DNA of 64,000 bases from Minisyncoccota bacterium (GTDB lineage Bacteria > Patescibacteriota > Minisyncoccia > Phycocordibacterales > JABAAK01): the NCBI GenBank assembly GCA_958295675.1, contig OY282360.1, positions 125,810 through 189,809 on the forward strand, read 5' to 3'. Shown here in pieces: positions 43,699 through 63,616 of the stretch. A model generated the notes under the pieces. The model saw only the letters and a list, made by a program, of their open reading frames with translations, ran no database searches and was not told the origin of the DNA. Positions within the stretch are counted from its first letter, which is position 1; the number at the start of each line of letters is the position of its first letter. Both the position numbers and the translations under genes were made by a program.

Positions 43699-43775
43699 AG
43701 CGGGGTAGAGCAGTCAGGTGGCTCGCCAGGCTCATAACCTGGAGGTCGTTGGTTCAAATCCAACCCCCGCTACCA
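43699..43775 (+). tRNA. tRNA-Met (anticodon CAT; elongator or lysidine-Ile2 type) with encoded CCA
   Basis: AGCGGGG/CCCCGCT acceptor (position 1-72 paired), CCAGG-CTCATAA-CCTGG anticodon arm, GTTGG-TTCAAAT-CCAAC T-arm, 3' ACCA. Confidence 0.85.
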
Positions 43776-43789
43776 AGGTGGAAAGAATA

Positions 43790-45415
43790 ATGTCTATGGC
43801 TACTAATAAAGAGAAGGATAGGGAAGAATATACTAAGAAGATATTAGATAGTGATTCTAATAAGAAAGTTATTGTTGCAGGACCTGGAACCGGGAAAACT
43901 TTTACCTTTGGTGAATACCTGAAAAAAATTCCTGGAAATAGAGAAAATAAAATTGTGATGACTTTTATCAATCCACTTGTTGATGATTTAAACTCTGATT
44001 TGGGGGAGAAGGCAATTGTTAGAACTTTTGATGGTTTTGTAAAAAAGGAATGCGAGGAACACAATCTGATAAAAAGCGATGAGCAGTACTTTTTAGGTGC
44101 AAACAAAATAATTTCCGAGGACCATGATTACATTTTTGGTACAAAGAAAGATTTTTCACATCTTTTCAATACTTTAGATATAGAAAATGAGTCAGAAGAT
44201 ATTCAGAATTTCGTGAAAAAGCAAAATGAGTTTTATAAATTTGTTGATCCGTCTGTCATTAAGTATCGGTTATATGACCACTTTAATAAGCACCAGCATG
44301 AGATACCAAGGTATGATGTTGTTATCATAGATGAATTTCAAGATTTCAACAAATTAGAGGCGAAAATTGTTGTGGAACATCTTTCAAAAAATATTTTATT
44401 GGCAGGTGATGATGACCAAGTCCTCTTTGAATTTAAGGGTTCAAATCCAGATTGTATAAGGGAATTATTCAACAAGGAAAATGATTACGAATCTTTTACA
44501 CTACCCTATTGTTCCCGATGTCCCGCCTCTGTCGTCAAGTTTGTTAATAGAATTATTGAGTACAGTAAAAAACATACTATTTTTCCGGCAGATCGTTGTG
44601 ACAAGCAATATCTACCATTTAGGGAAGAAGAAATAAGCAGTGTGAAATTTGTTCCGTATGGTATGGGGTCAATGTTTCCTATAGAACGAGAATTGAAAGA
44701 CATCAGAGATAGGAATGCGAGTGTTTTAATATTACATCCATATGGTGCAACAAATGAGGCAGAGCGGTTGTATGAGTACCTAACGCTGAGAGGGTTTAAG
44801 GTGAATAGAAAAAAGAAAGAAGTAAAGAAGAAAGTGTTTGAGGCGTTGGATACATTATCCAATGATCAGAGATCAAACCTTGGTTGGAGAATTATCTTAC
44901 CATTTCTTTTTTCTAAAAGTGAGGTTAAAAAAATGATTAAGCGGTGCTATGACGAAAATAAAAATATTTTTGATATTGTAGAAATTGAGTACAAACAAAA
45001 AGTTAAAGATGTTATTACGGTCATTCAACATTTTAAATCATCAAAAACAAAAACCCCCACAACAGGACAGAGTGATACATTATTAAAACTGTTTAATATG
45101 GAAGCATCAAAAATAGGAATATCAGATGATCGAAAAAACAAAATCAGAGAGATGAAGAGAAAATACTTGGGATACAAGTTAAATAATACATTGACTATAG
45201 AAATGTGTAACATAGGGAATTCAAAAGGATTATCTGCAGATTATGTTTTCATTTATCCATTTTCAAAACAACATTTTAAGTTGCAATATCCGCAGGATAT
45301 CTATAATATTGTCGTTGCTTTGACACGAACAAAGAAAAAACTACTGATATTTGAACCAGAAGAAAATTCACAGCAATCGGCAGTAAAAGATTTATATGAA
45401 GAATCCGCCGAGTAA
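43790..45415 (+). CDS. UvrD/PcrA/Rep-like superfamily-1 DNA helicase (short, 541 aa; GajB-like)
   Basis: Motifs I AGPGTGKT, Ia TFINPLV, II IDEFQDFN, III AGDDDQVLFEFKGS and VI VALTRTKKKLLIF. The ORF-track start at 43718 overlaps the tRNA and was trimmed. Confidence 0.8.
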   Translation: MSMATNKEKDREEYTKKILDSDSNKKVIVAGPGTGKTFTFGEYLKKIPGNRENKIVMTFINPLVDDLNSDLGEKAIVRTFDGFVKKECEEHNLIKSDEQYFLGANKIISEDHDYIFGTKKDFSHLFNTLDIENESEDIQNFVKKQNEFYKFVDPSVIKYRLYDHFNKHQHEIPRYDVVIIDEFQDFNKLEAKIVVEHLSKNILLAGDDDQVLFEFKGSNPDCIRELFNKENDYESFTLPYCSRCPASVVKFVNRIIEYSKKHTIFPADRCDKQYLPFREEEISSVKFVPYGMGSMFPIERELKDIRDRNASVLILHPYGATNEAERLYEYLTLRGFKVNRKKKEVKKKVFEALDTLSNDQRSNLGWRIILPFLFSKSEVKKMIKRCYDENKNIFDIVEIEYKQKVKDVITVIQHFKSSKTKTPTTGQSDTLLKLFNMEASKIGISDDRKNKIREMKRKYLGYKLNNTLTIEMCNIGNSKGLSADYVFIYPFSKQHFKLQYPQDIYNIVVALTRTKKKLLIFEPEENSQQSAVKDLYEESAE

Positions 45416-45597
45416 GGGTGTTGGTAAATAAGGATTGGTATTATATTGGTGGTCTAACGATGGGATTTAGAATGGTATACTAACACATATGGAGAATGGC
45501 AAAGACAATAGGCAGGGGAGAGCTGTCAGCAATTCGCTAGAATAAAGGGTGTAGATACCCGATACGGCAAGTTGATTGCATGTGATACCATGAAAGT

Positions 45598-47655
45598 ATG
45601 TCAAAAGGCAGGACAGTAGATATTGCGGACCTGACCAGGTCCTCCGGGAAGTATGATTTAGTCATCTTTTCACGGGAAAGTATTGATAGAGTAGAAAAAA
45701 ATATCTCTGAAAAAGACAAAAAACATGTCATTACCTGTCTGAAACGGGAGAAAGACATACAAGCGAAACCGGAAGAGATAATCCGTCAGCTCATGCTTGA
45801 TAAACTGATATATGAGTATGAATATCCAAAAGATTTGTTGTCGGTGGAGTACGGCGTGAGTTTCGGGCGGGAGAAGAAATCAGCTGACATCGTCATCCTC
45901 AACAAGGCGGACAAGACGAGCGTGTATTGTGTGTTGGAGATTAAAAAACACAACGCAAAAGACGGAAAAGACCAATTGAAGAGTTACACGAACGCAACCG
46001 GCGCACCGCTCGCCGTCTGGACGAACGGAACGGAAATGACCTGTTACGAACGACTGGATCCAAACTACTTTGAGCCGCTGTCAGACCTGCCGAAAGCAGG
46101 AGAGAATATAGACGATGTGAAAAACGAACGGTTCACCTATCTTGACCTAATGCAGAAAGATAGGTTGCAGGAGGAGAGAAAGTCCCTCAAGCAACTCATT
46201 CAGGAAATGGAAGACGAGGTGTTGGCGAATGCGGGAGTGGATGTATTTGAAGAGGTATTCAAATTGATTTTCACAAAACTCTACGACGAGATGGAGAGTG
46301 CTGATGATCGAATACAAATTGAGCGGGAGATGAAGCGGATACACAAAAAAAGCGACAAAGAGTTTCTTGTGGAGGATGCGGTGACCGAAGTAAAGATGGA
46401 CACCTTCGACTTCAGGCAGCTTGAATTCCGAAGCCGTGGTGACGCGCACCACACGAAAGAAGTTATCAATACGCTCTTCAAGAAAGCAAAGAACAAGTGG
46501 CAAGATATATTTGACAAAGGCGAGCCGCTGAAAATAACGGACGAGAATCATCTCCAGATTTGTGTGGGTTTCCTACAGAATGTGAAACTGTTTAACTCCA
46601 ACCTGCAGATAATTGACGAGGCGTTTGAGTATCTGGTCAACAAATCCGCGAAAGGAGAGAAAGGACAATACTTCACCCCGAGAAATGTCATTGATATGGC
46701 GGTGTATATGATAAACCCGAAGGACACGGAGTACATGATTGATACCGCATGCGGTAGTTGCGGTTTCACTATCCACACTCTGTTCAATGTGTGGGAAAAG
46801 ATACGAAGTTCTGGCAAATCACAATTTGCAAACTTCTCCAATCAGCGATTAACACAGGAACAGAAGGACTACATAGATAAAGTGTTCGGTATTGATTTTG
46901 ACGAAAAAACTGTGCGGGTGGCACGGACGCTGAACATGATTGCTGGAGACGGCAGGACGAATGTGCTGTACCTCAACTCCCTTGATTATACACGTTGGGA
47001 GGAGCGGTTGCGGGATGCCGAATGGAGCAGAACCTATTTGCAAGGATACTATCGCCTGCTTGATCTGGCGAAAGACAGAAAAGTGCCGAAAGAGTTCAAC
47101 TTTGACATCGTGATGGCGAATCCTCCATTTGCGGGAGACATTAAAGATGGGCGGATTATATCCAATTACGATATGGCGTTCAATGAGAAAGGTAAAAGAG
47201 TGAACAAAATATCACGGGACATTCTGTTCATAGAGAGAAACCTGGATTTCCTAAAACCGGGCGGACGGATGGCAATCGTTCTCCCTCAAGGTAGGTTCAA
47301 CAACACATCCGACCAGCGAATCAGGGAGTGCATCATGGACAGAGCACGATTGGTAGCCGTTGTCGGACTTGATGTAAACACTTTCAAACCGCACACCGGT
47401 ACCAAGACATCCGTTCTCTTCATTCAGAAGTGGGATGAAAAAATAAACCCAAAGACAGATGACTACCCGATTTTCATGGCGGTCTCCGAAAACTCCGGTA
47501 AAGACAATTCAGGAGACGAGATATACGAGACGGACAGCAAGGGAAACAGAAAACTGGACGAACACAGCCACCTCATCCAAAAGCACGACCTCAGAGATAT
47601 TGCCTTCGCATTTGAGAAGTGGGCGAAGAAGAACAAATTAAGTTTTTGGAAATAG
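45598..47655 (+). CDS. N6-adenine DNA methyltransferase, HsdM-like, fused to an N-terminal HsdR_N-type (PD-(D/E)xK-like) domain
   Basis: N-terminal ADIVILNK...VLEIKKHN...AVWTNG (HsdR_N pattern). MTase motif I region GQYFTPR...DTACGSCGF and motif IV NPPF. Confidence 0.8.
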   Translation: MSKGRTVDIADLTRSSGKYDLVIFSRESIDRVEKNISEKDKKHVITCLKREKDIQAKPEEIIRQLMLDKLIYEYEYPKDLLSVEYGVSFGREKKSADIVILNKADKTSVYCVLEIKKHNAKDGKDQLKSYTNATGAPLAVWTNGTEMTCYERLDPNYFEPLSDLPKAGENIDDVKNERFTYLDLMQKDRLQEERKSLKQLIQEMEDEVLANAGVDVFEEVFKLIFTKLYDEMESADDRIQIEREMKRIHKKSDKEFLVEDAVTEVKMDTFDFRQLEFRSRGDAHHTKEVINTLFKKAKNKWQDIFDKGEPLKITDENHLQICVGFLQNVKLFNSNLQIIDEAFEYLVNKSAKGEKGQYFTPRNVIDMAVYMINPKDTEYMIDTACGSCGFTIHTLFNVWEKIRSSGKSQFANFSNQRLTQEQKDYIDKVFGIDFDEKTVRVARTLNMIAGDGRTNVLYLNSLDYTRWEERLRDAEWSRTYLQGYYRLLDLAKDRKVPKEFNFDIVMANPPFAGDIKDGRIISNYDMAFNEKGKRVNKISRDILFIERNLDFLKPGGRMAIVLPQGRFNNTSDQRIRECIMDRARLVAVVGLDVNTFKPHTGTKTSVLFIQKWDEKINPKTDDYPIFMAVSENSGKDNSGDEIYETDSKGNRKLDEHSHLIQKHDLRDIAFAFEKWAKKNKLSFWK

Positions 47656-47658
47656 CGT

Positions 47659-49485
47659 ATGAAATTTACAAAATTTACAATTAAAAACTTTAAAGGTATT
47701 GAAAACCTTACATTAGATTTCACTAAACATCCTCAAGGTAAGATATTTCCATTAGTGGGATTAAATGAAAGTGGAAAAACAACGATTTTAGAGGCGATTG
47801 ATTTATTTCAGAATGAGATAGAAAATGGACGAGAGCATGAAATGATTCATAAGAGAAAGAAGGGGAAGTTTAATGGTTCTATTGAGATTGCTGCAACCTT
47901 ACAACTGGAAGATCAGGATAAAACTTTTATTAGGAACTTTTTAAGAAGAAAGAGATTGGAAATGCAAGATGATATTGAAGAAATTACAATAACAAAAATA
48001 TATTTTTTTTTAGACTCGGATTATAAAGAATTTCTTTCGGAATGGCATATTCCGCTAATGGTGAAAACAAGCCAGAGGAAAGATTTTATAAATCTGCATA
48101 AGGGGTATAAAGATCATTGGAGTAAATTGGTTAAAGAGATGGAAGATAAATATATTCCTCATATTCTATACTTTGAAAATTTTTTATTTGATTTTCCTGA
48201 GAAAATTTACCTTACCACTCCAGATAATGCAGTAACAGAAACAGATAATCAAACACAAAAAGAATATAGAGAAGTTTTAGATGATATATTAAGCAGTGTA
48301 GATCCTGATTATAATTTCAGAAAACATATTTTACAGAGATTAGAAAGTTCTAGTACTAGTGATAGAGAAGCAGTTACACAAGTATTAAACGAAATGAGTC
48401 AAAAACTTAATGATGTAATTGTTACTCCGTGGAAAAATATTCTAAAAGATTCTGCTGAGATAACTATTGAAGTCAAAAACAGTCAAGATTCAAACGGTCA
48501 TTTTCTTGAATTTAAAATAAAACAAGGTGCAGAAAGTTTTAATATAGGAGAGAGGAGTTTGGGGTTTAAATGGTTTTTTGGTTTTTTGCTTTTCACTGAA
48601 TTTAGAACCCAAAGAAAAGTTGAAAAAGGGGAGTATATATTTTTATTTGATGAACCGGCAAGTAATTTGCATCCTGCTGCTCAGCAGGCGTTATTAAATT
48701 GTTTTACAAACCTTGCTGAAAAATCAAAAATTATTTACTCAACTCACAGTCACTACCTCTTGATACCAAAACTTTTACTCACAGCGTTTGTAGTTATAGA
48801 CAGCGGAAAAAAACAGAATGAGAATGGGGAGATGATTTGGAAAGATTATAGTCAAAATATAACAGCCCAACCATATAGGTATTTTGTTTCCATAACAAGT
48901 GATAGTGATGATATGCATTATCAGCCACTTTTAGACTGCTTGGAATATGTAGAAAACCCTTTTGCAAATAATGATAATATAGTTTTTCTTGAGGGTAAAT
49001 ACGATTATTATATGTTTCAATGGATTAGAGAAAAATTTTTTCTAGGTGAGGATTATAATTTTAATTTTCGTCCAGGTGGGGGTGCCGGAAAATTTGAAAA
49101 TATTTTTTGTGAATATTTAGCGACCAACAAAAAATTTGTTGCAATTTTTGACGCAGATAGCGCAGGGAAAAGAGAAAAAGATCGTTATTTAGATAGTGTA
49201 AGTGTAGAATTGGAAAAAAATATTTTTACACTTGAGGATGTAAAATCATCCTTTAAGGGCTTTCAGATAGAAAAATTATTTTTTGTTAGTAATAAGACGG
49301 ATGATAGGTTGATCATTCAAAAAAAGGTATTTTCAAATGATAAAAGGTACAATAAAGGACGTTTTAACAAGGCAGTTCAAGAAATTTTTATAAACAAGGC
49401 TGAAATCATCCTAACAAGAACAACACAAAAAAACTTCAAAGCAGTTTTTGATTTTATACAACAAAAATTTAATGATCTAAGTTAA
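47659..49485 (+). CDS. OLD-family ATPase-nuclease (ABC-type ATPase + C-terminal TOPRIM-like domain; GajA-like)
   Basis: FTIKNFKGIENLTLDF...GLNESGKTTILEAI Walker A, then LFDEPASNLHP Walker B / D-loop. The C-terminus has VFLEGKYD and AIFDADSAGK (TOPRIM-like E and DxD). Confidence 0.7.
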   Translation: MKFTKFTIKNFKGIENLTLDFTKHPQGKIFPLVGLNESGKTTILEAIDLFQNEIENGREHEMIHKRKKGKFNGSIEIAATLQLEDQDKTFIRNFLRRKRLEMQDDIEEITITKIYFFLDSDYKEFLSEWHIPLMVKTSQRKDFINLHKGYKDHWSKLVKEMEDKYIPHILYFENFLFDFPEKIYLTTPDNAVTETDNQTQKEYREVLDDILSSVDPDYNFRKHILQRLESSSTSDREAVTQVLNEMSQKLNDVIVTPWKNILKDSAEITIEVKNSQDSNGHFLEFKIKQGAESFNIGERSLGFKWFFGFLLFTEFRTQRKVEKGEYIFLFDEPASNLHPAAQQALLNCFTNLAEKSKIIYSTHSHYLLIPKLLLTAFVVIDSGKKQNENGEMIWKDYSQNITAQPYRYFVSITSDSDDMHYQPLLDCLEYVENPFANNDNIVFLEGKYDYYMFQWIREKFFLGEDYNFNFRPGGGAGKFENIFCEYLATNKKFVAIFDADSAGKREKDRYLDSVSVELEKNIFTLEDVKSSFKGFQIEKLFFVSNKTDDRLIIQKKVFSNDKRYNKGRFNKAVQEIFINKAEIILTRTTQKNFKAVFDFIQQKFNDLS

Positions 49486-49490
49486 AATAT

Positions 49491-50837
49491 ATGGCACAGA
49501 TTAGCATAATTAAAAAGAAAGATGTTTTGAAAGGTGGACGGTTAGATGCCGAGTATTTTAAATCGGAGTATTTGGAAGTCGAGAATAAAATAAAAAGTTG
49601 GGGATATAAAACCATATCGGATTTGGCAGGAGGGTGTGTCAATTATGGACTGAATGTTGACCCTTTTTATACAGATGTAGGTATAAAGTTCATAAGAGCG
49701 CAGAATTTGAAGGAATTTGGTTTTGAGGGAGAGATTTTAAACATTCCATATTCAAAAGAGGATCTGTCCGAAAGAGAATTATTACAAACAGGAGATCTGA
49801 TGATAGTTAGAAGCGGTGCTAATGTCGGAGACATAGGAATAATAACCGACGAGTTCAAAGAGTCATCCTTTGGTTCCTATATTATTAAGTTTGATGTAAA
49901 AGATCATATTAATCCCTACTTTGTCTATATCTTTCTAAAAACGAAATATGGAAGATTGCAGACAGTAAGGTTCAGAAGCGGTGCTGCCCAGCCAAACATA
50001 AGTATTCCAAACTTAAATAAAATTTTGGTACCAATCTTAAATTCAAAATTCCAGAAAGATATAGAAAATGATTTCTTCAAGGCAAAAGAAAAACAAGAGA
50101 AAGCAAAAACTTTATATAAAAAAGCAGAAAAAATTCTTTTAGAAGAGTTTGGGTTGATAGGATATAAAACAGAACACGCTCTTACTTTTGAAGTGAAAAG
50201 AAAAGATATTGAAAGTGTAAAGAGATTTGATGCCGAATACTTCCAACCAAAGTATGAGGATATAATTAAAAAGATTCATGGATATAAAATGGGTTTTGCT
50301 AATGCAGAGGATATATTAATTTTCAACAAAAAGAATTTTTTTCCGAAGGAGGATGTGCTCTATAATTATCTTCCGCTGTCAAAGGTGTCAGGTGTGGGTG
50401 ATATAGATGTTTCTGAAAGAGAGTTAGGGAGAAATCTACCAACACGAGCAAGAAGAAGAGTACAGGCAGGTGAGGTGATATTATCTTCTATTAAGGGTAG
50501 CTTGGAATCTTCGGCACTGATACAGCAGGAGCATAATAACATGATTGTTTCTACAGGATTTTATGTTTTTCATTCAAACAAGATAAACTCGGAAACACTT
50601 TTGATTTTGTTTAAATCAAGATTCATGCTTGAATTATTGGAAAGAATATCAAAAGGTGCAATTCTCGGTGGGTATGATTTAGAGAGTTTTGAAAAAATAA
50701 AAATTCCACTCGTTAGGCAAAAGATCCAAAAACAAATCGCCGAAAAAATACAAGAGAGTCATAAATTGCGCAAAGAAAGCAAGAAGATGCTTGAATCAGC
50801 AAAAAAGAAAGTTGAAGAAGAGATAGAGAAAGCATAG
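49491..50837 (+). CDS. hsdS: Type I restriction-modification specificity subunit HsdS (two target-recognition domains)
   Basis: RLDAEYF at the start of TRD1 and FDAEYFQPKY at TRD2, with conserved coiled-coil spacers. 6 nt downstream of the OLD-like gene. Confidence 0.85.
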   Translation: MAQISIIKKKDVLKGGRLDAEYFKSEYLEVENKIKSWGYKTISDLAGGCVNYGLNVDPFYTDVGIKFIRAQNLKEFGFEGEILNIPYSKEDLSERELLQTGDLMIVRSGANVGDIGIITDEFKESSFGSYIIKFDVKDHINPYFVYIFLKTKYGRLQTVRFRSGAAQPNISIPNLNKILVPILNSKFQKDIENDFFKAKEKQEKAKTLYKKAEKILLEEFGLIGYKTEHALTFEVKRKDIESVKRFDAEYFQPKYEDIIKKIHGYKMGFANAEDILIFNKKNFFPKEDVLYNYLPLSKVSGVGDIDVSERELGRNLPTRARRRVQAGEVILSSIKGSLESSALIQQEHNNMIVSTGFYVFHSNKINSETLLILFKSRFMLELLERISKGAILGGYDLESFEKIKIPLVRQKIQKQIAEKIQESHKLRKESKKMLESAKKKVEEEIEKA

Positions 50838-50854
50838 AGACAACCCAAATCCTG

Positions 50855-51010
50855 TTCAGCGAGGTGAATTAAGCGAAAATTCAACAGTCAAGAATTTCTT
50901 GACAGTTCAAAAAGGATGCGGTGCGTAGGATTCGTTTGCACTTAAAATAAGAGCCAACTTGTGCAAAATTTACACAAGTTCAAAAAGAAAGAGCAAATGA
51001 GTTGGAATCC
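50855..51010 (+). repeat. P-repeat copy 1 (~150 bp; two hairpins + RBS + ATGAGTTGGAATCC start module)
   Basis: Homologous to 54745-54895. Contains the near-palindrome AACTTGTGCAAAATTTACACAAGTT. Confidence 0.8.
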
Positions 51011-51578
51011 GGTGAGGATAGAAGTAATCTATGAGTATAAACAATGTCTTAATCCTTCTTATCGTACCTTTAAACGGTATAGTGTAAATATGAGACATTC
51101 ATACACCACAGCAGATTTTATTCCTCTGATAGCGGTGGTTTTGTGTGTTACTGCCGCAACACTGCTCACCGGTGCATATACAGGTGCCGAGGGAATTAGG
51201 TGGATAGCATTGTTCATGGGATTTTTCTTCCTGGTGTTCGGTCTGTTCAAGGCATGGAACTTGCGGGGATTTGCGGAAGCATACCGCATGTACGACCTCA
51301 TTGCAATGCGCAGTCGGTTCTATGCACACCTATATCCGTTCATTGAACTGATGCTCGGAATACTGTATATCGGCGGCTGGTACCTGTTTGCCACCAACAT
51401 CACCACGCTCATTGTTATGACAGTATCAGCGGCAGGTGTGTTCATACAGCTGCGTAAGAGGGAAGAGATACCGTGTGCATGTCTCGGCACGGTATTCGTC
51501 ATCCCGATGACCTGGATCACGCTCGGGGAAGATCTCCTGATGGCAGGCATGGCGGCGGTGATGTTGGTTTTGTTATGA
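50997..51578 (+). CDS. MauE/DoxX-family membrane protein (start uncertain; the ATG lies within the P-repeat start module)
   Basis: 4 TM helices and a CACLG motif typical of the MauE/DoxX family. The ORF-track start at 50961 translates the palindrome. Confidence 0.5.
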   Translation: MSWNPVRIEVIYEYKQCLNPSYRTFKRYSVNMRHSYTTADFIPLIAVVLCVTAATLLTGAYTGAEGIRWIALFMGFFFLVFGLFKAWNLRGFAEAYRMYDLIAMRSRFYAHLYPFIELMLGILYIGGWYLFATNITTLIVMTVSAAGVFIQLRKREEIPCACLGTVFVIPMTWITLGEDLLMAGMAAVMLVLL

Positions 51579-51610
51579 GCGATTTAGGTAAGCAATTCTT
51601 TGATTTTAGA

Positions 51611-51650
51611 AGAGTCAACTTGTGCAAAATTTGCACAAGTTCAAAAAGAA
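51611..51650 (+). repeat. P-repeat copy 2 (palindrome core only: AACTTGTGCAAAATTTGCACAAGTT)
   Basis: Perfect 12-bp-arm palindrome. Followed by an RBS-like sequence and a 6-codon ORF. Confidence 0.8.
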
Positions 51651-51722
51651 GGAAATAGAGATGTTAGTAGTGTCGGTATAACGCTTGCGGTATTAGTACT
51701 CAGAAATCATTTTTTCTTTGTG

Positions 51723-53022: not shown

Positions 53023-53122
53023 AAAAATAATACGCCCTGATTGCATCCACGCATGTGTTCCATCTCTCCTCGCCTAATTTTTTCGTTGTTTTTCCGTATT
53101 TCAGATTTTCTCTCGGGAACAG
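53023..53122 (+). repeat. Q-repeat copy 1 (100 bp, 99% identical to 55923-56022)
   Basis: Direct reading shows one mismatch. It corresponds to the 3' end (last ~33 codons) of the minus-strand gene 55921..56304. Confidence 0.85.
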
Positions 53123-53201
53123 AGAGTATTATTTGATGCTAGAATTTATTTTTTGTAGATTTGGCACTGTGCATTTCTAATTAAGGTGTATACTGAAATA
53201 T

Positions 53202-54038
53202 ATGGCCACCAAGACCCGATACAAAGGTCCGCGCATCAAGATGAAAGAGAAAGAGGTACCTCATTACTTTAATTATGAGGATATTTATATTTATCAGGGT
53301 AATATTTTAGATGTGCCACATATTAAAAAATCATCTGTTGATTTGATCATAACCTCACCACCATACAATGTGGATATCAGTTATAATTCACATAAGGATG
53401 ATTCAACGTATGAGGATTATTTGAAGTTTACAGAAAAATGGTTGGAAAAATGTTACGACTTAGCAAACGATGCCGGACGATTTTGTCTCAATATCCCATT
53501 AGATAAAAATAAAGGCGGGCAACAGTCAGTGTGTGCTGATATCACCAGTATTGCTAAACAAATTGGTTGGAAATATCATTCAACAATTATTTGGAATGAA
53601 GGAAATATATCGCGTCGGACAGCATGGGGTTCTTGGTTGTCTGCGTCTGCTCCCTATGTTATCGCTCCGGTAGAAGTCATCGTTATTTTGTATAAAAATG
53701 AATGGAAGAAGGAAAAAAATGAAAAAGAGAATGACATTACCAAACAAGAATTTATGGATTGGACTAATGGAGTGTGGACATTCTCTGGTCAAAGTAAAAA
53801 AGGAGCCGGCGGGCATCCAGCTGCCTTTCCGCTTGAATTACCTCGCCGATGTGTTAAATTATTCAGTTTTGTTGGTGACACTGTTTTTGATCCGTTTTTG
53901 GGAAGTGGTTCAACCCTTATAGCAGCGCGCTTACATAATAGAAAGAGTATTGGGGTTGATATTGATAAAGAGTACTGTGATATAGCCATTGAAAGATTGC
54001 GCAAAGAGGCAAATATTGATCAAGGTAATTTATTTTAA
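53202..54038 (+). CDS. Type II DNA methyltransferase, beta-class N6_N4_Mtase (motif IV SPPY, motif I DPFLGSGST)
   Basis: DLIITSPPY comes before the C-terminal FDPFLGSGST, the circular permutation typical of N4C/N6A beta MTases. Confidence 0.8.
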   Translation: MATKTRYKGPRIKMKEKEVPHYFNYEDIYIYQGNILDVPHIKKSSVDLIITSPPYNVDISYNSHKDDSTYEDYLKFTEKWLEKCYDLANDAGRFCLNIPLDKNKGGQQSVCADITSIAKQIGWKYHSTIIWNEGNISRRTAWGSWLSASAPYVIAPVEVIVILYKNEWKKEKNEKENDITKQEFMDWTNGVWTFSGQSKKGAGGHPAAFPLELPRRCVKLFSFVGDTVFDPFLGSGSTLIAARLHNRKSIGVDIDKEYCDIAIERLRKEANIDQGNLF

Positions 54039-54052
54039 TCTCTTTACAATGT

Positions 54053-54655
54053 ATGAAAAAGCACATATCAGAGAAAAGGCAAAAATCACAAAAAGATTTG
54101 ATATTGGAGTTTTTCAAAAAACACCCTAACAAGGATATATCACACCCAGAAGTTGTGGATTGGGCAACGAAGACATGGAAAAGGCAAACTGGCAGAGTTC
54201 TGCGAGATCCGGATAGAGCAGTTCGGATTTTACATGAAGAGGGGTATTTAATCAAAGTTGAAAAAGGTGTGTATCGCTACAATCCAAAGTCTGCCACTAA
54301 AAAGAAACAGCAGAATTTTACCGAAGTTCAAAAAAAGAAAATCTTAAAAAGAGATGGAAACAAATGCGTAATTTGCGGAAAAGGTAAGAAGGAAGGGATG
54401 GAGTTACATGTTGATCATATAAAACCAAAAGATCGTGGCGGTGAAGCAACTATAAGTAATGGACAAACTCTTTGTTCACAGCATAACTTTATGAAGAAAA
54501 ATGTAGATCAGACAGAAACAGGAAAGAAAATGTTCATTAGATTATACACACTTGCGAAAAAGGAGAAAAATAAAGGTTTACAAAAGTTTTGTGCTGATAT
54601 CCTAAAGACATACAAAAAACACAATGTAAATGGACATATTGAATGGGAAAAATAA
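54053..54655 (+). CDS. HNH endonuclease (putative cognate Type II restriction enzyme)
   Basis: CVICG...HVDHIKP...NGQTLCSQHN HNH motif. 15 nt downstream of the MTase gene. Confidence 0.65.
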   Translation: MKKHISEKRQKSQKDLILEFFKKHPNKDISHPEVVDWATKTWKRQTGRVLRDPDRAVRILHEEGYLIKVEKGVYRYNPKSATKKKQQNFTEVQKKKILKRDGNKCVICGKGKKEGMELHVDHIKPKDRGGEATISNGQTLCSQHNFMKKNVDQTETGKKMFIRLYTLAKKEKNKGLQKFCADILKTYKKHNVNGHIEWEK

Positions 54656-54744: not shown

Positions 54745-54895
54745 ACTCCAAGGTGAATTGAGCGAAAATTCAACTATTAAGGATTTCTTAATAGTTCAAG
54801 AAATTTATTACAAAAACTGAAAAGAAGAGCCAACTTGTGCAAAATTTGCACAAGTTCAAAAAAAGAGAGCAGATGAGTTGGAATCCAGTGGATGG
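54745..54895 (+). repeat. P-repeat copy 3 (two hairpins + RBS + ATGAGTTGGAATCC start module leading into a 37-codon ORF)
   Basis: Aligned to copy 1. Hairpin A shows compensatory substitutions (CAGTCAAG/CTTGACAG versus CTATTAAG/CTTAATAG). Confidence 0.8.
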
Positions 54896-54992: not shown

Positions 54993-55700
54993 ATGGAAGA
55001 TACAGAGAAACATAAGGAATGGATTAAAGTGAATAAACAAAAGGTAATTGATCATTTTTGTTCCGGCATTGAACAGAGTGAATCCCCACTTGCCATTTTC
55101 ATGTGTGGATCTTCAGGTGCTGGTAAGACCGAAGAGGCGCGGAGATTAAAAGAGCATTTTGAAAAAAAGGGCACCAATCCGCATTTCGTGCATATTGACC
55201 AGGACATAGTAAAGGGGATGATTCCTGGATATAGTGGAGAGAATGCGGATATGTTTCAAGGTGCGGCATCAATCGGTGTTGATAAGATTCTCGATTACTG
55301 TTATAAGAAAAAATTACATTTTATTTTGGATTCCACCTTTTCTAGATACCCAAAAGCACAAAAAAATATAGCACGGGCTATCAAACAAAAAAGGCGTATA
55401 TTTATCATATATATTTACCAAGATCCTGAAGTGACCTGGAATTTTGTAGAAAATAGGAGAAAGGTTGAAAAGCGAAAAGTACCAATCGATGCTTTTGCAA
55501 ATTCTTACTTTGGCGCGTTTAAAACCATCAAGAAAATAAAGGAAGAGTATAAAACAAAGGTGTTATTGACTGTGGTAAACAAAGATACCGGCAAACAATA
55601 TATGAATGTGACAGGGGTTGACTCATATGTAAAAATGAAATACTCTAATAGTAAGAATCTAATAAAAAAACTTACAGAAGGAAACAATAAAATCACCTAA
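54993..55700 (+). CDS. P-loop kinase, zeta-toxin / AAA_33-like (putative toxin)
   Basis: Walker A GSSGAGKT near the N-terminus of a ~235-aa protein, in a defense context. Confidence 0.4.
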   Translation: MEDTEKHKEWIKVNKQKVIDHFCSGIEQSESPLAIFMCGSSGAGKTEEARRLKEHFEKKGTNPHFVHIDQDIVKGMIPGYSGENADMFQGAASIGVDKILDYCYKKKLHFILDSTFSRYPKAQKNIARAIKQKRRIFIIYIYQDPEVTWNFVENRRKVEKRKVPIDAFANSYFGAFKTIKKIKEEYKTKVLLTVVNKDTGKQYMNVTGVDSYVKMKYSNSKNLIKKLTEGNNKIT

Positions 55701-55920: not shown

Positions 55921-56304
55921 TTAAAAATAATACGCCCTGATTGCATCCACGCATGTGTTCCATCTCTCCTCACCTAATTTTTTCGTTGTTTTTCCGTATT
56001 TCAGATTTTCTCTCGGGAACAGGTAGCAGAGTGTGATTTTCTTGTGCAGGGTATCTATGACACACAGCATTCTGAAAGCATTTTTTCCTTTGATGCCCGG
56101 ATTCGGCAGATGTATATCCCATATCCCGACATTGCTATTCTTATAATATATCCTTTTAGATCTGCTCGTTACGACACATTCAAATGTCTCCAGTACCTGT
56201 GTTAAATTTTCTTTAAATTTTGAAGATAGTTTCTTACTGTCCGTGAATCTGTAGAAATCTTTTTCTGAGGTATGATATGCAATGCTGTTTTTTAGCGTGG
56301 GCAT
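55921..56304 (-). CDS. putative RelE/ParE-superfamily (HigB/Gp49-like) toxin
   Basis: ~127 aa with a GIWDIHLPNPG...FRMLCVID...LCYLFPR pattern resembling RelE/ParE-fold toxins. Lies downstream of the Panacea-domain gene on the same strand. Confidence 0.35.
   Translation of the reverse strand: MPTLKNSIAYHTSEKDFYRFTDSKKLSSKFKENLTQVLETFECVVTSRSKRIYYKNSNVGIWDIHLPNPGIKGKNAFRMLCVIDTLHKKITLCYLFPRENLKYGKTTKKLGEERWNTCVDAIRAYYF
55923..56022 (+). repeat. Q-repeat copy 2
   Basis: See copy 1. Overlaps the 3' end of the 55921..56304 (-) gene. Confidence 0.85.
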
Positions 56305-60093: not shown

Positions 60094-62112
60094 TTACTGA
60101 TACAACTCTTTCAGAATTTGGTATTGGGTTTTTCCTCGTTTTTCCTTTGAGTCAACAATCTGCTCTTTCCAGTTGACATCAACCTTATCCAAAATATACC
60201 CGAGTGCCGCACCGGTTGCATAGAGTATTCTGAAACTCAGCGAGTTAGCGCGCGCATCGCTTCCTTTGCTAATAATATCGTCCAGTGTAACGACAAAACT
60301 GAACGATTGTATGCCATAGAGATCAAACGATTGTGTACCTGTCTGCAGATTGGTGAATTTCAGTTCCACATACCTCGCTGTTCCTTCAATCGCTTCAATC
60401 AGCTCCTCTTTTTTCAGTTCAGGGTACGCGCTCATCCTTGCTTCCCGTTTTTGAATATATTGCCTTGCGAGCGCGGGAACATCCTCTTTTGATGCCAGAA
60501 CAAGTGCGTCCAACAGCGCGTACTCTTCTCTCAGTTCGGCGATGTACTCTTCACCGGTCGGATACTGGGCTATAAACCAATCTTGCACAGTTGGATCATC
60601 GTAGACCCAGCCCCGCTGCACATATGTATGAAAAGATTCGTGCAGCAAAAAGTTAGAGAAATCAAGTTTATCACTGTCATCTGTGAACCTATCGTTGTTG
60701 TATTTGAAATAGAAGTAATCGCCTGTTCCGTCACGGAATGAATATGCGCTGTTTTTCTTAAACAAAAAACCGAAGCTAGACGGGAACCATAGCGGCGCGG
60801 ATCCTGAAAAGAATAACGGAACCCGGTACACCGGACCGAAATTGAATGCATCGTCAAACGACACCTTCTTTGCAAATACAATCTTCTCGGCATCCGGATA
60901 CCGTATGAGGTAAGCATACTGCCAAAATGGGGATGTCTCCCTGTTAGTCCGTACCAACACCAGAGGAACTTCGTGAAATGCGTATCCGTCCCATAGTGTT
61001 GCTTCCTGTTCGGCAAACGCATCATGCAGGGCATCCAGTTCATGAAATACCTTTTTATCAATTTCCGGGAAACTCGCATACTGATCTCCCGCGGTAAAAA
61101 ACAGGGTATAGGAATATATGCTATATACAACAATCAAACTGGCAATTACACTAAAAATCACAATGAAGATTTTAGATAACAAGGATATATCAGACGATTG
61201 AATTTTTTCCAAGAATTCTTTTGGCAATCCCTTCACTGTGTTTGTATTTATATACAAATCAACTTTTTGTTTTTGATCATCAAGTAAACTTGTTGATTTT
61301 ACAACAAATATACCGTGTACATACTTCATGTTTTCTGAACAAAATGAGGAATCATAACTGTATTCATTTTTTGTAATTTCAATTTTCGTCTCCTCTCTTG
61401 ATAGTTGCCTACCGTCTTTTTTGGAATAAAGTAAATCCTCAAGGTTTTTATGAGAAAATCCTATTGCCCCAGTATCCCCAAAGATTTCTGTTATATCAAT
61501 GAGAAAAAAATTAAAATCTTCTTCATGACCCGCAATCTTTTTTAGTTGTTTTAGCTTGTTCTGTATAGAGTTTATTATCCTCAGATTTTTGATTTGGTGT
61601 TCTAGATCGCCATCTCTCCCTGTGTAAATTCGCATACGCGAGTAATCAATATTCTGCAAACCACTTTTTCCTTTTTTAGGAGAAACACATTCCACTCTAT
61701 ACTTCTCACCATTGTAGATGAATTCAAAGTCAAATCCACTACTCGGGTGTGATAGGGAACCAAACAGATTGCGAAAAAACAATAATGCCCCAACCTCAGA
61801 ATAAAAAGAAGATAGTTGTCTCAAGAATTCATTAGGATCGGTGCATTTAATCAATGCTTCCAATTCTGAGATACCACCCCACTTAATGTATTCCTTTATT
61901 TTTGGTATAACCTCTTTTTCATATCGATCAAAATGTTTTCCTTTGCCATAATATATATCGTTATATTCTTCATCTGTTGATATTTTTTTAAAGCCGATTA
62001 TCTCGCCTGTAGGATCAGTATCATCAACAATCGGTTTTTTCCAATTTTCAGAATTACTCTTGTGAAACTTCTTGTATTTCTCCAAGAAATTGTTCAATAT
62101 ATCCTCACACAT
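60094..62112 (-). CDS. hypothetical 672-aa protein with a central TM helix and a sharp composition shift between halves
   Basis: Continuous ORF. The N-terminal half (62112 to ~61130) is AT-rich and the C-terminal half is GC-normal. Confidence 0.4.
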   Translation of the reverse strand: MCEDILNNFLEKYKKFHKSNSENWKKPIVDDTDPTGEIIGFKKISTDEEYNDIYYGKGKHFDRYEKEVIPKIKEYIKWGGISELEALIKCTDPNEFLRQLSSFYSEVGALLFFRNLFGSLSHPSSGFDFEFIYNGEKYRVECVSPKKGKSGLQNIDYSRMRIYTGRDGDLEHQIKNLRIINSIQNKLKQLKKIAGHEEDFNFFLIDITEIFGDTGAIGFSHKNLEDLLYSKKDGRQLSREETKIEITKNEYSYDSSFCSENMKYVHGIFVVKSTSLLDDQKQKVDLYINTNTVKGLPKEFLEKIQSSDISLLSKIFIVIFSVIASLIVVYSIYSYTLFFTAGDQYASFPEIDKKVFHELDALHDAFAEQEATLWDGYAFHEVPLVLVRTNRETSPFWQYAYLIRYPDAEKIVFAKKVSFDDAFNFGPVYRVPLFFSGSAPLWFPSSFGFLFKKNSAYSFRDGTGDYFYFKYNNDRFTDDSDKLDFSNFLLHESFHTYVQRGWVYDDPTVQDWFIAQYPTGEEYIAELREEYALLDALVLASKEDVPALARQYIQKREARMSAYPELKKEELIEAIEGTARYVELKFTNLQTGTQSFDLYGIQSFSFVVTLDDIISKGSDARANSLSFRILYATGAALGYILDKVDVNWKEQIVDSKEKRGKTQYQILKELYQ

Positions 62113-62719: not shown

Positions 62720-63616
62720 TTAAAAACTATCAATATTCAGTTCCATTTTATTTTTATATCCTATAGTATGCTTCCGCATTAACTCAATAAGCCGGTGACC
62801 ATTGATGAGTGTAATAAGATGTTCGTTTCCCAGATTCTCCGCTTTCTTGGAAAAATCGGAGGTGGTGATAAATACAGCCTTTTCCGCACTCTTAGCTTTG
62901 ATTGCACCGAGAAAGTCTCTAATAACCTTTTCTTGTATCTTATTATCCTTATTGAACCGTTTTGCCTCCATGACCACCTTAAACTTTACAAACTCGATTT
63001 CTATGTACCCTACACCATCCACCCCACCATCCCGGGTCTTTTGTGTTTCCTCCATTTTCCCTCCCATCGCCTTGAGTAGTTGGATGCATAACCTTTCAAA
63101 ATTAAGCGGTTCCATTTTCCTAATTTTCTCCAAATCACCCTCTATTCCGTCATCATCTTCAATGGTGATATCTTCTAAATCTGGAAGAGGTTGATTGTCT
63201 TTTTGTCTTGCCACCCTTTGCTCTTCAAGGTACTGATCGATTATCGGTGTCATCTCATCCCTAAGATTTTTCGCTTCAGTATATTTGCCATCTCCTTCTA
63301 GAAGTTTTACCACCTCCTCTCCTTTCTTTGAAAGGTACCAGTATCCTTTCTCCCTAAATTCTTTCGGTTCAATATGATTTGTTGTTCTCAGACGAGACAT
63401 GGTGAACCGAACCGCTTTTTCAAATACAAGGTCCTTGTTTTTACCAGACCTCTTTTCTAGCACTTCTTCTGTCAAACCCATCAGAGTACCGACCCTTGCA
63501 ATAACTTTGGTGCCATGAGCACCACCACCCTCCTTATGGAGTGCATATATTAGATAGGGATATATGGTTTCATATGACGGCATTTCATTTATATCCAAAT
63601 TGTTATCAAACAGCAT
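62720..63616 (-). CDS. Mrr-like Type IV restriction endonuclease (Mrr_N winged helix + Mrr_cat)
   Basis: C-terminal GGVDGVGYIE...VMEAKRF...FITTSDFS catalytic-domain pattern. Confidence 0.7.
   Translation of the reverse strand: MLFDNNLDINEMPSYETIYPYLIYALHKEGGGAHGTKVIARVGTLMGLTEEVLEKRSGKNKDLVFEKAVRFTMSRLRTTNHIEPKEFREKGYWYLSKKGEEVVKLLEGDGKYTEAKNLRDEMTPIIDQYLEEQRVARQKDNQPLPDLEDITIEDDDGIEGDLEKIRKMEPLNFERLCIQLLKAMGGKMEETQKTRDGGVDGVGYIEIEFVKFKVVMEAKRFNKDNKIQEKVIRDFLGAIKAKSAEKAVFITTSDFSKKAENLGNEHLITLINGHRLIELMRKHTIGYKNKMELNIDSF

Follow-up and report, generated by a model that had tools for sequence, protein, structure and literature searches.

A defence locus was analysed in a stretch of 64,000 nucleotides (nt), hereafter the window, from a Minisyncoccota bacterium (contig OY282360.1, positions 125,810 to 189,809). 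The locus starts behind a tRNA-Met (CAT) gene on the plus strand (43699-43775), which was detected by ARAGORN and forms the upstream edge of a low-GC island. Four genes follow in the same direction. The first encodes a UvrD-like superfamily 1 (SF1) helicase of 541 amino acids (aa) (43790-45415). The second (45598-47655) encodes a 685-aa fusion of restriction and modification (RM) domains, called M below, and is preceded by a conserved cassette leader of 64 nt (45534-45597), at the start of which a nucleotide identity of 93.5% (blastn) to a sister contig, L001, sets in. The third (47659-49485) encodes an OLD-family nuclease of 608 aa with an ABC ATPase and a C-terminal TOPRIM domain, and it fills a cargo slot between its neighbours. 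The fourth (49491-50837) encodes the specificity subunit HsdS (S), of 448 aa with two target recognition domains (TRDs). The original prediction had reported four co-directional genes behind a tRNA-Met, and this was confirmed by open reading frames (ORFs) and ARAGORN; its four domain assignments were upheld by Pfam, with the TOPRIM domain resting on other evidence described below. The short gaps that it gave were also found, but the untranslated intervals are 14, 182, 3 and 5 nt, the values of 15, 183, 4 and 6 being coordinate differences.

The M protein matched Pfam HSDR_N_2 (E 1.2e-25) at aa 58-165 (nt 45769-46092) and N6_Mtase (E 1.2e-33) at aa 338-636 (nt 46609-47505), with a helical connector between the two domains; in PADLOC it matched MTase_I (PDLC03034) with 847 bits. 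A family profile of 14 members (54-100% identity) was searched against the PDB sequences, and the best solved relative of M was found to be RM.BsaXI, a Type IIB enzyme (8w0p, E 5e-31), with the nuclease and methyltransferase (MTase) domains in collinear order. The nuclease-domain match was obtained only via the family profile (domain E 2e-4). BsaXI assembles as (RM)2S, and mutagenesis of the PD-(D/E)xK domain at the N-terminus of RM showed that the enzyme depends on E73, D90, E105 and K107 (PMC11997821). Of these, D90, E105 and K107 aligned to D97, E114 and K116 of M, and E73 fell in an insertion. D97, E114-x-K116 and Q126xxxY130 were invariant in the M family over the whole identity range.

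For S, Pfam Methylase_S was matched in two stretches and Specificity_I in PADLOC, and the closest solved chains were Type I HsdS. When S was compared with its counterpart in L001 by blastn, both TRDs were seen to be swapped, and only the segments at 49491-49576, 50089-50267 and 50719-50860 were kept. Two TRDs, with alternating conserved and variable segments, are what this locus shares with Type I RM systems (hsdMSR). It differs from them in that no HsdR, the superfamily 2 (SF2) translocase-nuclease, was present within the window and in that M has no HsdM_N domain; its N-terminus is HSDR_N_2, of the PD-(D/E)xK type, whereas the canonical HsdM proteins met in the loci L030, L017 and L174 carry HsdM_N. 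The resemblance to the Type IIB enzymes BcgI and BsaXI extends over the whole architecture: in one RM polypeptide, a PD-(D/E)xK nuclease at the N-terminus is joined through a helical connector to an N6-adenine MTase of the gamma type, and a separate two-TRD HsdS-like subunit provides specificity, with no translocase. Here, in contrast to those enzymes, a cargo slot separates the RM and S genes, and cleavage is predicted from sequence. The core of the locus is best described as a BcgI/BsaXI-like Type IIB RM+S system with predicted cleavage activity.

As had been predicted, no hsdR was found in the window, where the ORFs of at least 450 aa were housekeeping genes, the genes of the locus and one unannotated ORF of 672 aa. 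Seven M-bearing loci with gene calls likewise had no HsdR. In the other M loci, the ten largest ORFs left unexplained in the vicinity of M or S were GmrSD, PolA, LeuRS, TPR, HATPase and similar proteins, with no HsdR among them. Since the core is a BcgI/BsaXI-like RM+S system, the absence of HsdR would be explained without invoking substitutes. The proposals of an orphan Type I MTase, or of OLD and UvrD proteins taking the place of HsdR, were therefore not needed, M being collinear with RM.BsaXI including the nuclease.

The M family is very large, with E < 1e-10 for all 8000 candidates that were scored. M proteins 75-80% identical to each other were found across Patescibacteria, Bacteroidales, Endomicrobia, Alphaproteobacteria and Aenigmarchaeota. 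Such identity across phyla (proteins P0121-P0240, loci L083-L168) is unusual conservation for an RM enzyme, and it suggests frequent horizontal transfer or strong constraint.

Homologous loci were collected in two samples. The first comprised 80 genome loci with the OLD-like family, plus L001 and L002; the second comprised 80 metagenome loci fetched with the M protein, which brought the M-bearing loci to 91. The M-selected loci are biased to slot contexts, whereas the OLD-selected genome set is not so biased. The 92 M-bearing sequences (91 fetched and the window) fell into 78 non-redundant groups, and S lay downstream of M in 68 of them. The distance from M to S ranged from 4 bp to 5.96 kb. 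It was found that the interval held an OLD-like gene in 18 groups and other cargo in 43, and that it was empty in 7. In the clade with M of at least 70% identity (n = 36), OLD-like genes were present in 18 groups and other cargo in 15, an M-S gap below 100 bp in none, and no S was seen in 3. In the clade of 54-60% identity (n = 42), the corresponding numbers were 0, 28, 7 and 7.

Over the 78 groups the cargo ORFs formed 48 clusters, many of uncharacterised function. Recognisable types were Fic, RhuM-Fic, Schlafen/AlbA_2, AAA_13 (the Pfam family that covers the PrrC/RloC ATPases), a different AAA_15 protein of 668 aa, DUF4145, Bro-N and Peptidase_M78 with DUF4411. These data showed that the M-S interval is a variable slot, whose guest gene or genes differ by locus. 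M and S also occur together with an empty slot or with any of dozens of other guest genes, so that the hybrid restriction system of the original prediction, in which OLD and UvrD proteins would stand in for HsdR, was not needed. In one locus (L003, 5879-9850) six genes, an OLD-like gene included, lay in a single M-S slot of 5.96 kb, and one of them was a member of the cargo cluster whose member in L088 is DUF4145. The slot can thus grow into a small island of its own.

The 608-aa protein in the slot of the window matched Pfam AAA_15 (E 3.3e-26) and AAA_21 (E 1.5e-15). An exact look-up of its sequence returned no record. Its ABC ATPase spans aa 1-368 (nt 47659-48762), and the TOPRIM domain lies at about aa 441-545 (nt 48979-49293). 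Pfam left aa 370-608 uncovered, the match of the TOPRIM region to Toprim_2 (E 0.035) being below threshold; among family members, however, 13 of 27 matched Toprim_2 (best E 3e-5) and 7 of 27 matched OLD-like_TOPRIM. The hidden Markov model check proposed for 47659..49485 was thus positive for the ABC ATPase, and for TOPRIM it was negative with the window protein and positive with its relatives. When 27 full-length homologs (38-89% identity) were aligned, the Walker A motif (G34-T41) and D331/E332 of the ATPase were invariant, as were E445, G446, D449, D498, D500, G503 and E538 of the TOPRIM domain.

An AlphaFold2 model of the 608-aa protein was obtained with a predicted local distance difference test (pLDDT) score of 84.6. 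When it was searched with Foldseek, the proposed structural similarity to GajA was borne out by alignments over the full length: the GajA structures 8u7i, 8sm3 and 8x5i, together with the Thermus scotoductus (Ts) OLD structure 6p74, were on top (E ~6e-15 to ~1e-14). By profile search, the best solved sequence relative was Ts OLD 6p74 (E 4.9e-10). Pfam, the invariant motifs and Foldseek together upheld the claim of an OLD-family ATPase-TOPRIM protein between M and S, translationally coupled to them. The protein resembles the Class 1 OLD proteins (P2 Old and Ts OLD) in its N-terminal ABC ATPase, in its C-terminal TOPRIM domain with E and DxD motifs, and in having no conserved helicase partner. 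It differs from them in that it shared only 13-15% identity with solved OLD proteins in structural alignments, and in that the clade of the window protein resides within an RM operon.

Away from the M and S genes of this family, the OLD-like gene was found at 56 loci, in many bacterial phyla and two archaeal lineages. No conserved partner of these stand-alone genes was detected, as no neighbour cluster occurred in more than 8 of the 56 loci. The 8 loci with a common neighbour include canonical Type I operons. Two of these, both from Bacteroidota, have the orders hsdM-hsdS-OLD-hsdR (L030, 7346-14887) and hsdR-OLD-hsdS-AAA_15-x-hsdM (L017, 1741-11279), the latter with two ATPase guests. Since the OLD-like family mostly stands alone and is also found in Type I operons, it is a self-standing, Class-1-type OLD family that repeatedly settles in RM operons.

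Embedded defence genes are known in Type I RM, BREX, DISARM and Hma systems, and the functional ATPase-TOPRIM fusion HEC-04 is one of them (bioRxiv 10.1101/2024.01.29.577857); TgvAB lies within a V. cholerae operon for Type I RM (PMC11411939). With PrrC in EcoprrI, rlo, TgvAB and the Hma-embedded HEC-04, the present case shares a self-contained defence gene inside a methylation-based system, one slot with many alternative cargo types, homologs that also occur outside the host system, and an ABC ATPase-TOPRIM fusion, which is already documented as an embedded type. In contrast to them, the guest here is hosted by a Type IIB-like RM+S system without HsdR, not by hsdMSR, BREX, DISARM or Hma, and the OLD-like guests form one long-lived clade whose divergence follows that of the host M gene. 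The gene order also suggested Hma (helicase-methylase-ATPase) itself. This candidate was rejected: no Hma model was matched among all 25 PADLOC matches of the helicase or among the top 25 for M and for the ATPase, and the cassette is conserved without the helicase.

The helicase matched Pfam UvrD-helicase (E 6.6e-14) and AAA_19. Its mechanical ORF starts at a GTG at 43718, within the tRNA-Met gene, and the public gene call (P0241, 565 aa) does the same; the ATG at 43790 is the likely start because AGGTGG lies upstream of it and because homologs are 538-542 aa long. The original prediction had seen in the helicase and the OLD protein the pair GajB and GajA of Gabija. By this reading a Gabija-type module would have been split by an inserted MTase gene. 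Indeed, both protein types are present in the locus, the top PADLOC match of the helicase was the GajB model (PDLC00122, 76.6 bits, full length), and the AlphaFold model of the OLD-like protein superposes on GajA, a top structural match. But the PADLOC matches of the OLD-like protein to GajA were partial and weak (48 bits or less), below those to the AriA and P2 Old models, and its closest solved relative by sequence is a Class 1 OLD.

The neighbourhoods of homologs were decisive for the Gabija question. Relatives of the helicase were found by tblastn in none of 81 OLD-selected loci, and in only 1 of the 91 M-selected loci (L092), with 27% identity and 1.8 kb downstream of S. In the sister contig L001, which shares synteny with the window, gatC, gatA, a 448-aa gene and tRNA-Met are followed by M-OLD-S, but without the helicase; the spacer between the tRNA gene and the cassette is 585 bp in L001 versus 1750 bp in the window, where the helicase sits. 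The region shared at 93.5% identity runs from 45534 to 49576 of the window (7876-11914 of L001), while the flanking gatA is only 72.7% identical (blastn). It follows that the cassette moves separately, and its upstream boundary leaves the helicase out. Relatives of the helicase (67% to 33% identity) adjoined an N6_N4 MTase-HNH fusion, a ResIII/N6_N4 MTase pair with PDDEXK_1, a canonical hsdM-fic-hsdS-hsdR operon and an MTase-TIR-NACHT island, and in six independent contexts no OLD gene lay beside them. The results showed that the helicase belongs to the island but not to the conserved cassette, having been inserted as a separate gene between the latter and the tRNA gene. The two Gabija-like genes are non-adjacent here and conserved together in no related locus, so that the pairing did not hold and the reading as a Gabija module is extremely improbable. 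The original prediction had asked whether neighbourhoods of homologs would reveal unlinked insertions; the helicase proved to be independent, and the OLD-like gene to be a passenger, though a long-standing one.

In the loci L169, L170, L171, L174, L177 and L092 and in the window, this SF1 helicase of about 550 aa lies mostly beside or near MTase genes of varied classes; in L171, a PDDEXK_1 gene directly follows it. From this small sample, the helicase may be a defence helicase that favours RM neighbourhoods.

Taken together, the locus is probably part of a defence island beside tRNA-Met and comprises a motor-less Type IIB-like RM+S core, an embedded OLD-family guest and an unrelated helicase. 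If the core works as its homolog BsaXI does, RM and S would form an (RM)2S complex that methylates a bipartite site in host DNA and cuts DNA close to that site where it is unmethylated. No translocation would be required, which would be the reason that no HsdR exists. The OLD guest would be co-transcribed and translationally coupled with its RM hosts, so that it would travel and be expressed with the RM system. Most likely it would act as a self-contained second line of defence, with an ATP-dependent sensor and a TOPRIM nuclease effector, and it may fire when the RM system is evaded or inhibited, like PrrC in EcoprrI or HEC-04. A defence gene embedded in an RM operon is a known pattern; what is new is the host system and the long-lived M-OLD-S cassette.

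Several observations weigh against this interpretation, some of them concerning the core and others the guest. The search for hsdR at this locus covered the 64-kb window of a 724-kb contig. That RM and S restrict DNA is deduced from conserved motifs and homology. The AlphaFold model of M had a pLDDT of only 50.5, with a shallow alignment of low diversity, and was not used for fold search. Moreover, M (685 aa) is shorter than RM.BsaXI (916 aa) and has no C-terminal knob/paddle: it ends near the equivalent of BsaXI residues 684-756, and the paddle, at residues 811-823, is needed for BsaXI cleavage (PMC11997821). The paddle is, however, a trait of BsaXI and its close relatives, not of all Type IIB enzymes. 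An alternative would be an orphan Type I-like MTase (M and S) that does not restrict, with HSDR_N_2 as a non-catalytic DNA-binding or regulatory domain and the OLD protein as the sole and independent nuclease. In its favour are the missing HsdR and paddle and the merely predicted status of cleavage, and the 75-80% identity of M across phyla could fit an epigenetic or housekeeping role. On the other hand, the nuclease residues D97, E114-x-K116 and QxxxY do not vary even down to 54% identity, and three of them coincide with essential BsaXI residues; the loci lie amid defence genes (GmrSD, Type II RM, zeta toxin), and the shuffling of TRDs in S is typical of systems that diversify under phage pressure. 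An orphan MTase is thus regarded as very unlikely.

As to the guest, all 20 OLD-like proteins that reside in the slot formed one clade in a neighbour-joining tree without bootstrap. The pairwise distances of OLD and its M partner were correlated (r 0.62, Mantel 0/2000), and around half of all slots in the M clade of at least 70% identity hold an OLD-like gene. The OLD-M association is therefore old and stable, not a casual insertion, and functional integration would give the same picture. The MADS system of P. aeruginosa (mad1-8) offers a precedent: defence requires both mad3 (ATPase) and mad4 (TOPRIM-like DUF4276), the two genes placed between mad2 and mad5, and loss of mad5 (S) is lethal unless mad2 (M) or mad3 is also deleted (bioRxiv 10.1101/2023.03.30.534895). 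All of these findings could be accommodated by an integrated, minimal MADS-like system of three components, in which the OLD-like protein would serve the M/S complex as its effector or motor; M and S would mark self and recognise unmethylated sites, and OLD would be recruited or licensed to degrade DNA. The M-ATPase-S order, with gaps of 3 and 5 nt, is kept in 18 non-redundant loci, and M and S matched the MAD2 and MAD5 models over their full length.

The scores were nevertheless far below the NCBIfam cutoffs (MAD2, 304.7 versus 720 bits; MAD5, 140 versus 400 bits), and the match to MAD3 (28.6 versus 420 bits) reflects generic ATPase similarity. The mad8 match of the helicase was 16.9 bits. 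No MAD6 (kinase), MAD7 (DptG-like), MAD8 (HerA-like) or DUF4276 (mad4) was found among the island genes, and the authors' model of MADS makes MAD6-8 mandatory (bioRxiv 10.1101/2023.03.30.534895). By score cutoffs and absent mandatory genes, membership in MADS was rejected. The likeness lies in the layout, as mad2-[mad3-mad4]-mad5 corresponds to M-slot-S and M has the same N-terminal domain, followed by an ATPase and then by S; but the ATPase of the window is fused to TOPRIM and is no MAD3 ortholog, and mad4, mad6, mad7 and mad8 are absent. Seen from the slot, the ATPase and DUF4276 genes of MADS are readable as cargo that became, or always was, functionally integrated.

An integrated system would also be difficult to reconcile with the M+S pairs without cargo (7 loci) or with unrelated cargo (43 loci, 48 ORF clusters), throughout which the nuclease motif is invariant, and with an OLD-like family that is mainly stand-alone and also occurs in Type I operons that already have HsdR. 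Co-inheritance is what is expected of a mobile cassette and is no proof of coupling between OLD and RM. We thus consider integration unlikely as a description of this locus. The further idea that M-OLD-S is a minimal three-gene, methylation-guided restriction system akin to the core of MADS, with the co-evolving OLD protein as a licensed effector or obligatory partner, is regarded as quite unlikely. If it were true, the slot would be a socket for interchangeable effectors wired to one sensor, and the design would recur in elaborated form in mad2-[mad3-mad4]-mad5.

With the embedded-guest interpretation as the preferred one, some consequences can be drawn. The co-occurrence of OLD and UvrD-like genes at a locus does not suffice for Gabija, nor does a missing HsdR for a hybrid system. 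The HsdR-less, Type IIB-like pair of MTase and S occurs very widely and, throughout archaea and bacterial phyla, shows high conservation. The best PADLOC models for M and S are labelled Type I, and some homologs are named 'type I restriction enzyme M protein'. This host may have escaped the published surveys of embedding, which were described as covering Type I RM, BREX, DISARM and Hma. The M-S slot would be a promising place to look for new defence genes by 'guilt by embedding', and the MADS-core-like M-OLD-S cassette would provide a small and tractable system in which to ask whether embedded ATPase-nucleases are wired to their host RM system. The locus is chiefly of value as one case of a host system that is widespread but overlooked and whose cargo slot is rich.

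The surroundings of the cassette were consistent with a defence island. The GC content drops from about 0.5 to 0.3-0.4 between about 44 and 56.5 kb of the window, and from this low-GC region beside tRNA-Met it was concluded that the island lies at the tRNA gene. A search for a downstream repeat copy of the 3' end of tRNA-Met gave none. A promoter and terminator scan of the sequence returned counts no higher than in shuffled sequence, and operon boundaries were therefore not derived from it. On the downstream side of S, the island goes on with a MauE-like membrane protein and an uncharacterised 408-aa gene. It further contains a Type II RM pair, consisting of an N6_N4 MTase (53202-54038) and an HNH endonuclease (54053-54655), and a zeta toxin gene (54993-55700) with no recognisable epsilon antitoxin.

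A second low-GC patch was observed at 60-64 kb. It holds the 672-aa ORF mentioned above (60094-62112, minus strand), which had no Pfam match, and an adjoining Mrr-type (Type IV) restriction endonuclease gene (62720-63616, minus strand). Within the first island, an intergenic element containing the palindrome CAACTTGTGCAAAATTTGCACAAGTT is repeated at 50862-51014, 51601-51675 and 54751-54890, and two of its CAACTTGTGCAAAATTTGCACAAGTT-bearing copies are followed by the same first codons (ATGAGTTGGAATCC..GTG). Another repeat, of 115 nt, is present at 53023-53137 and 55923-56037 with copies 93% identical. The island repeats may mark the junctions of its cassettes or act as shared operators or promoters.

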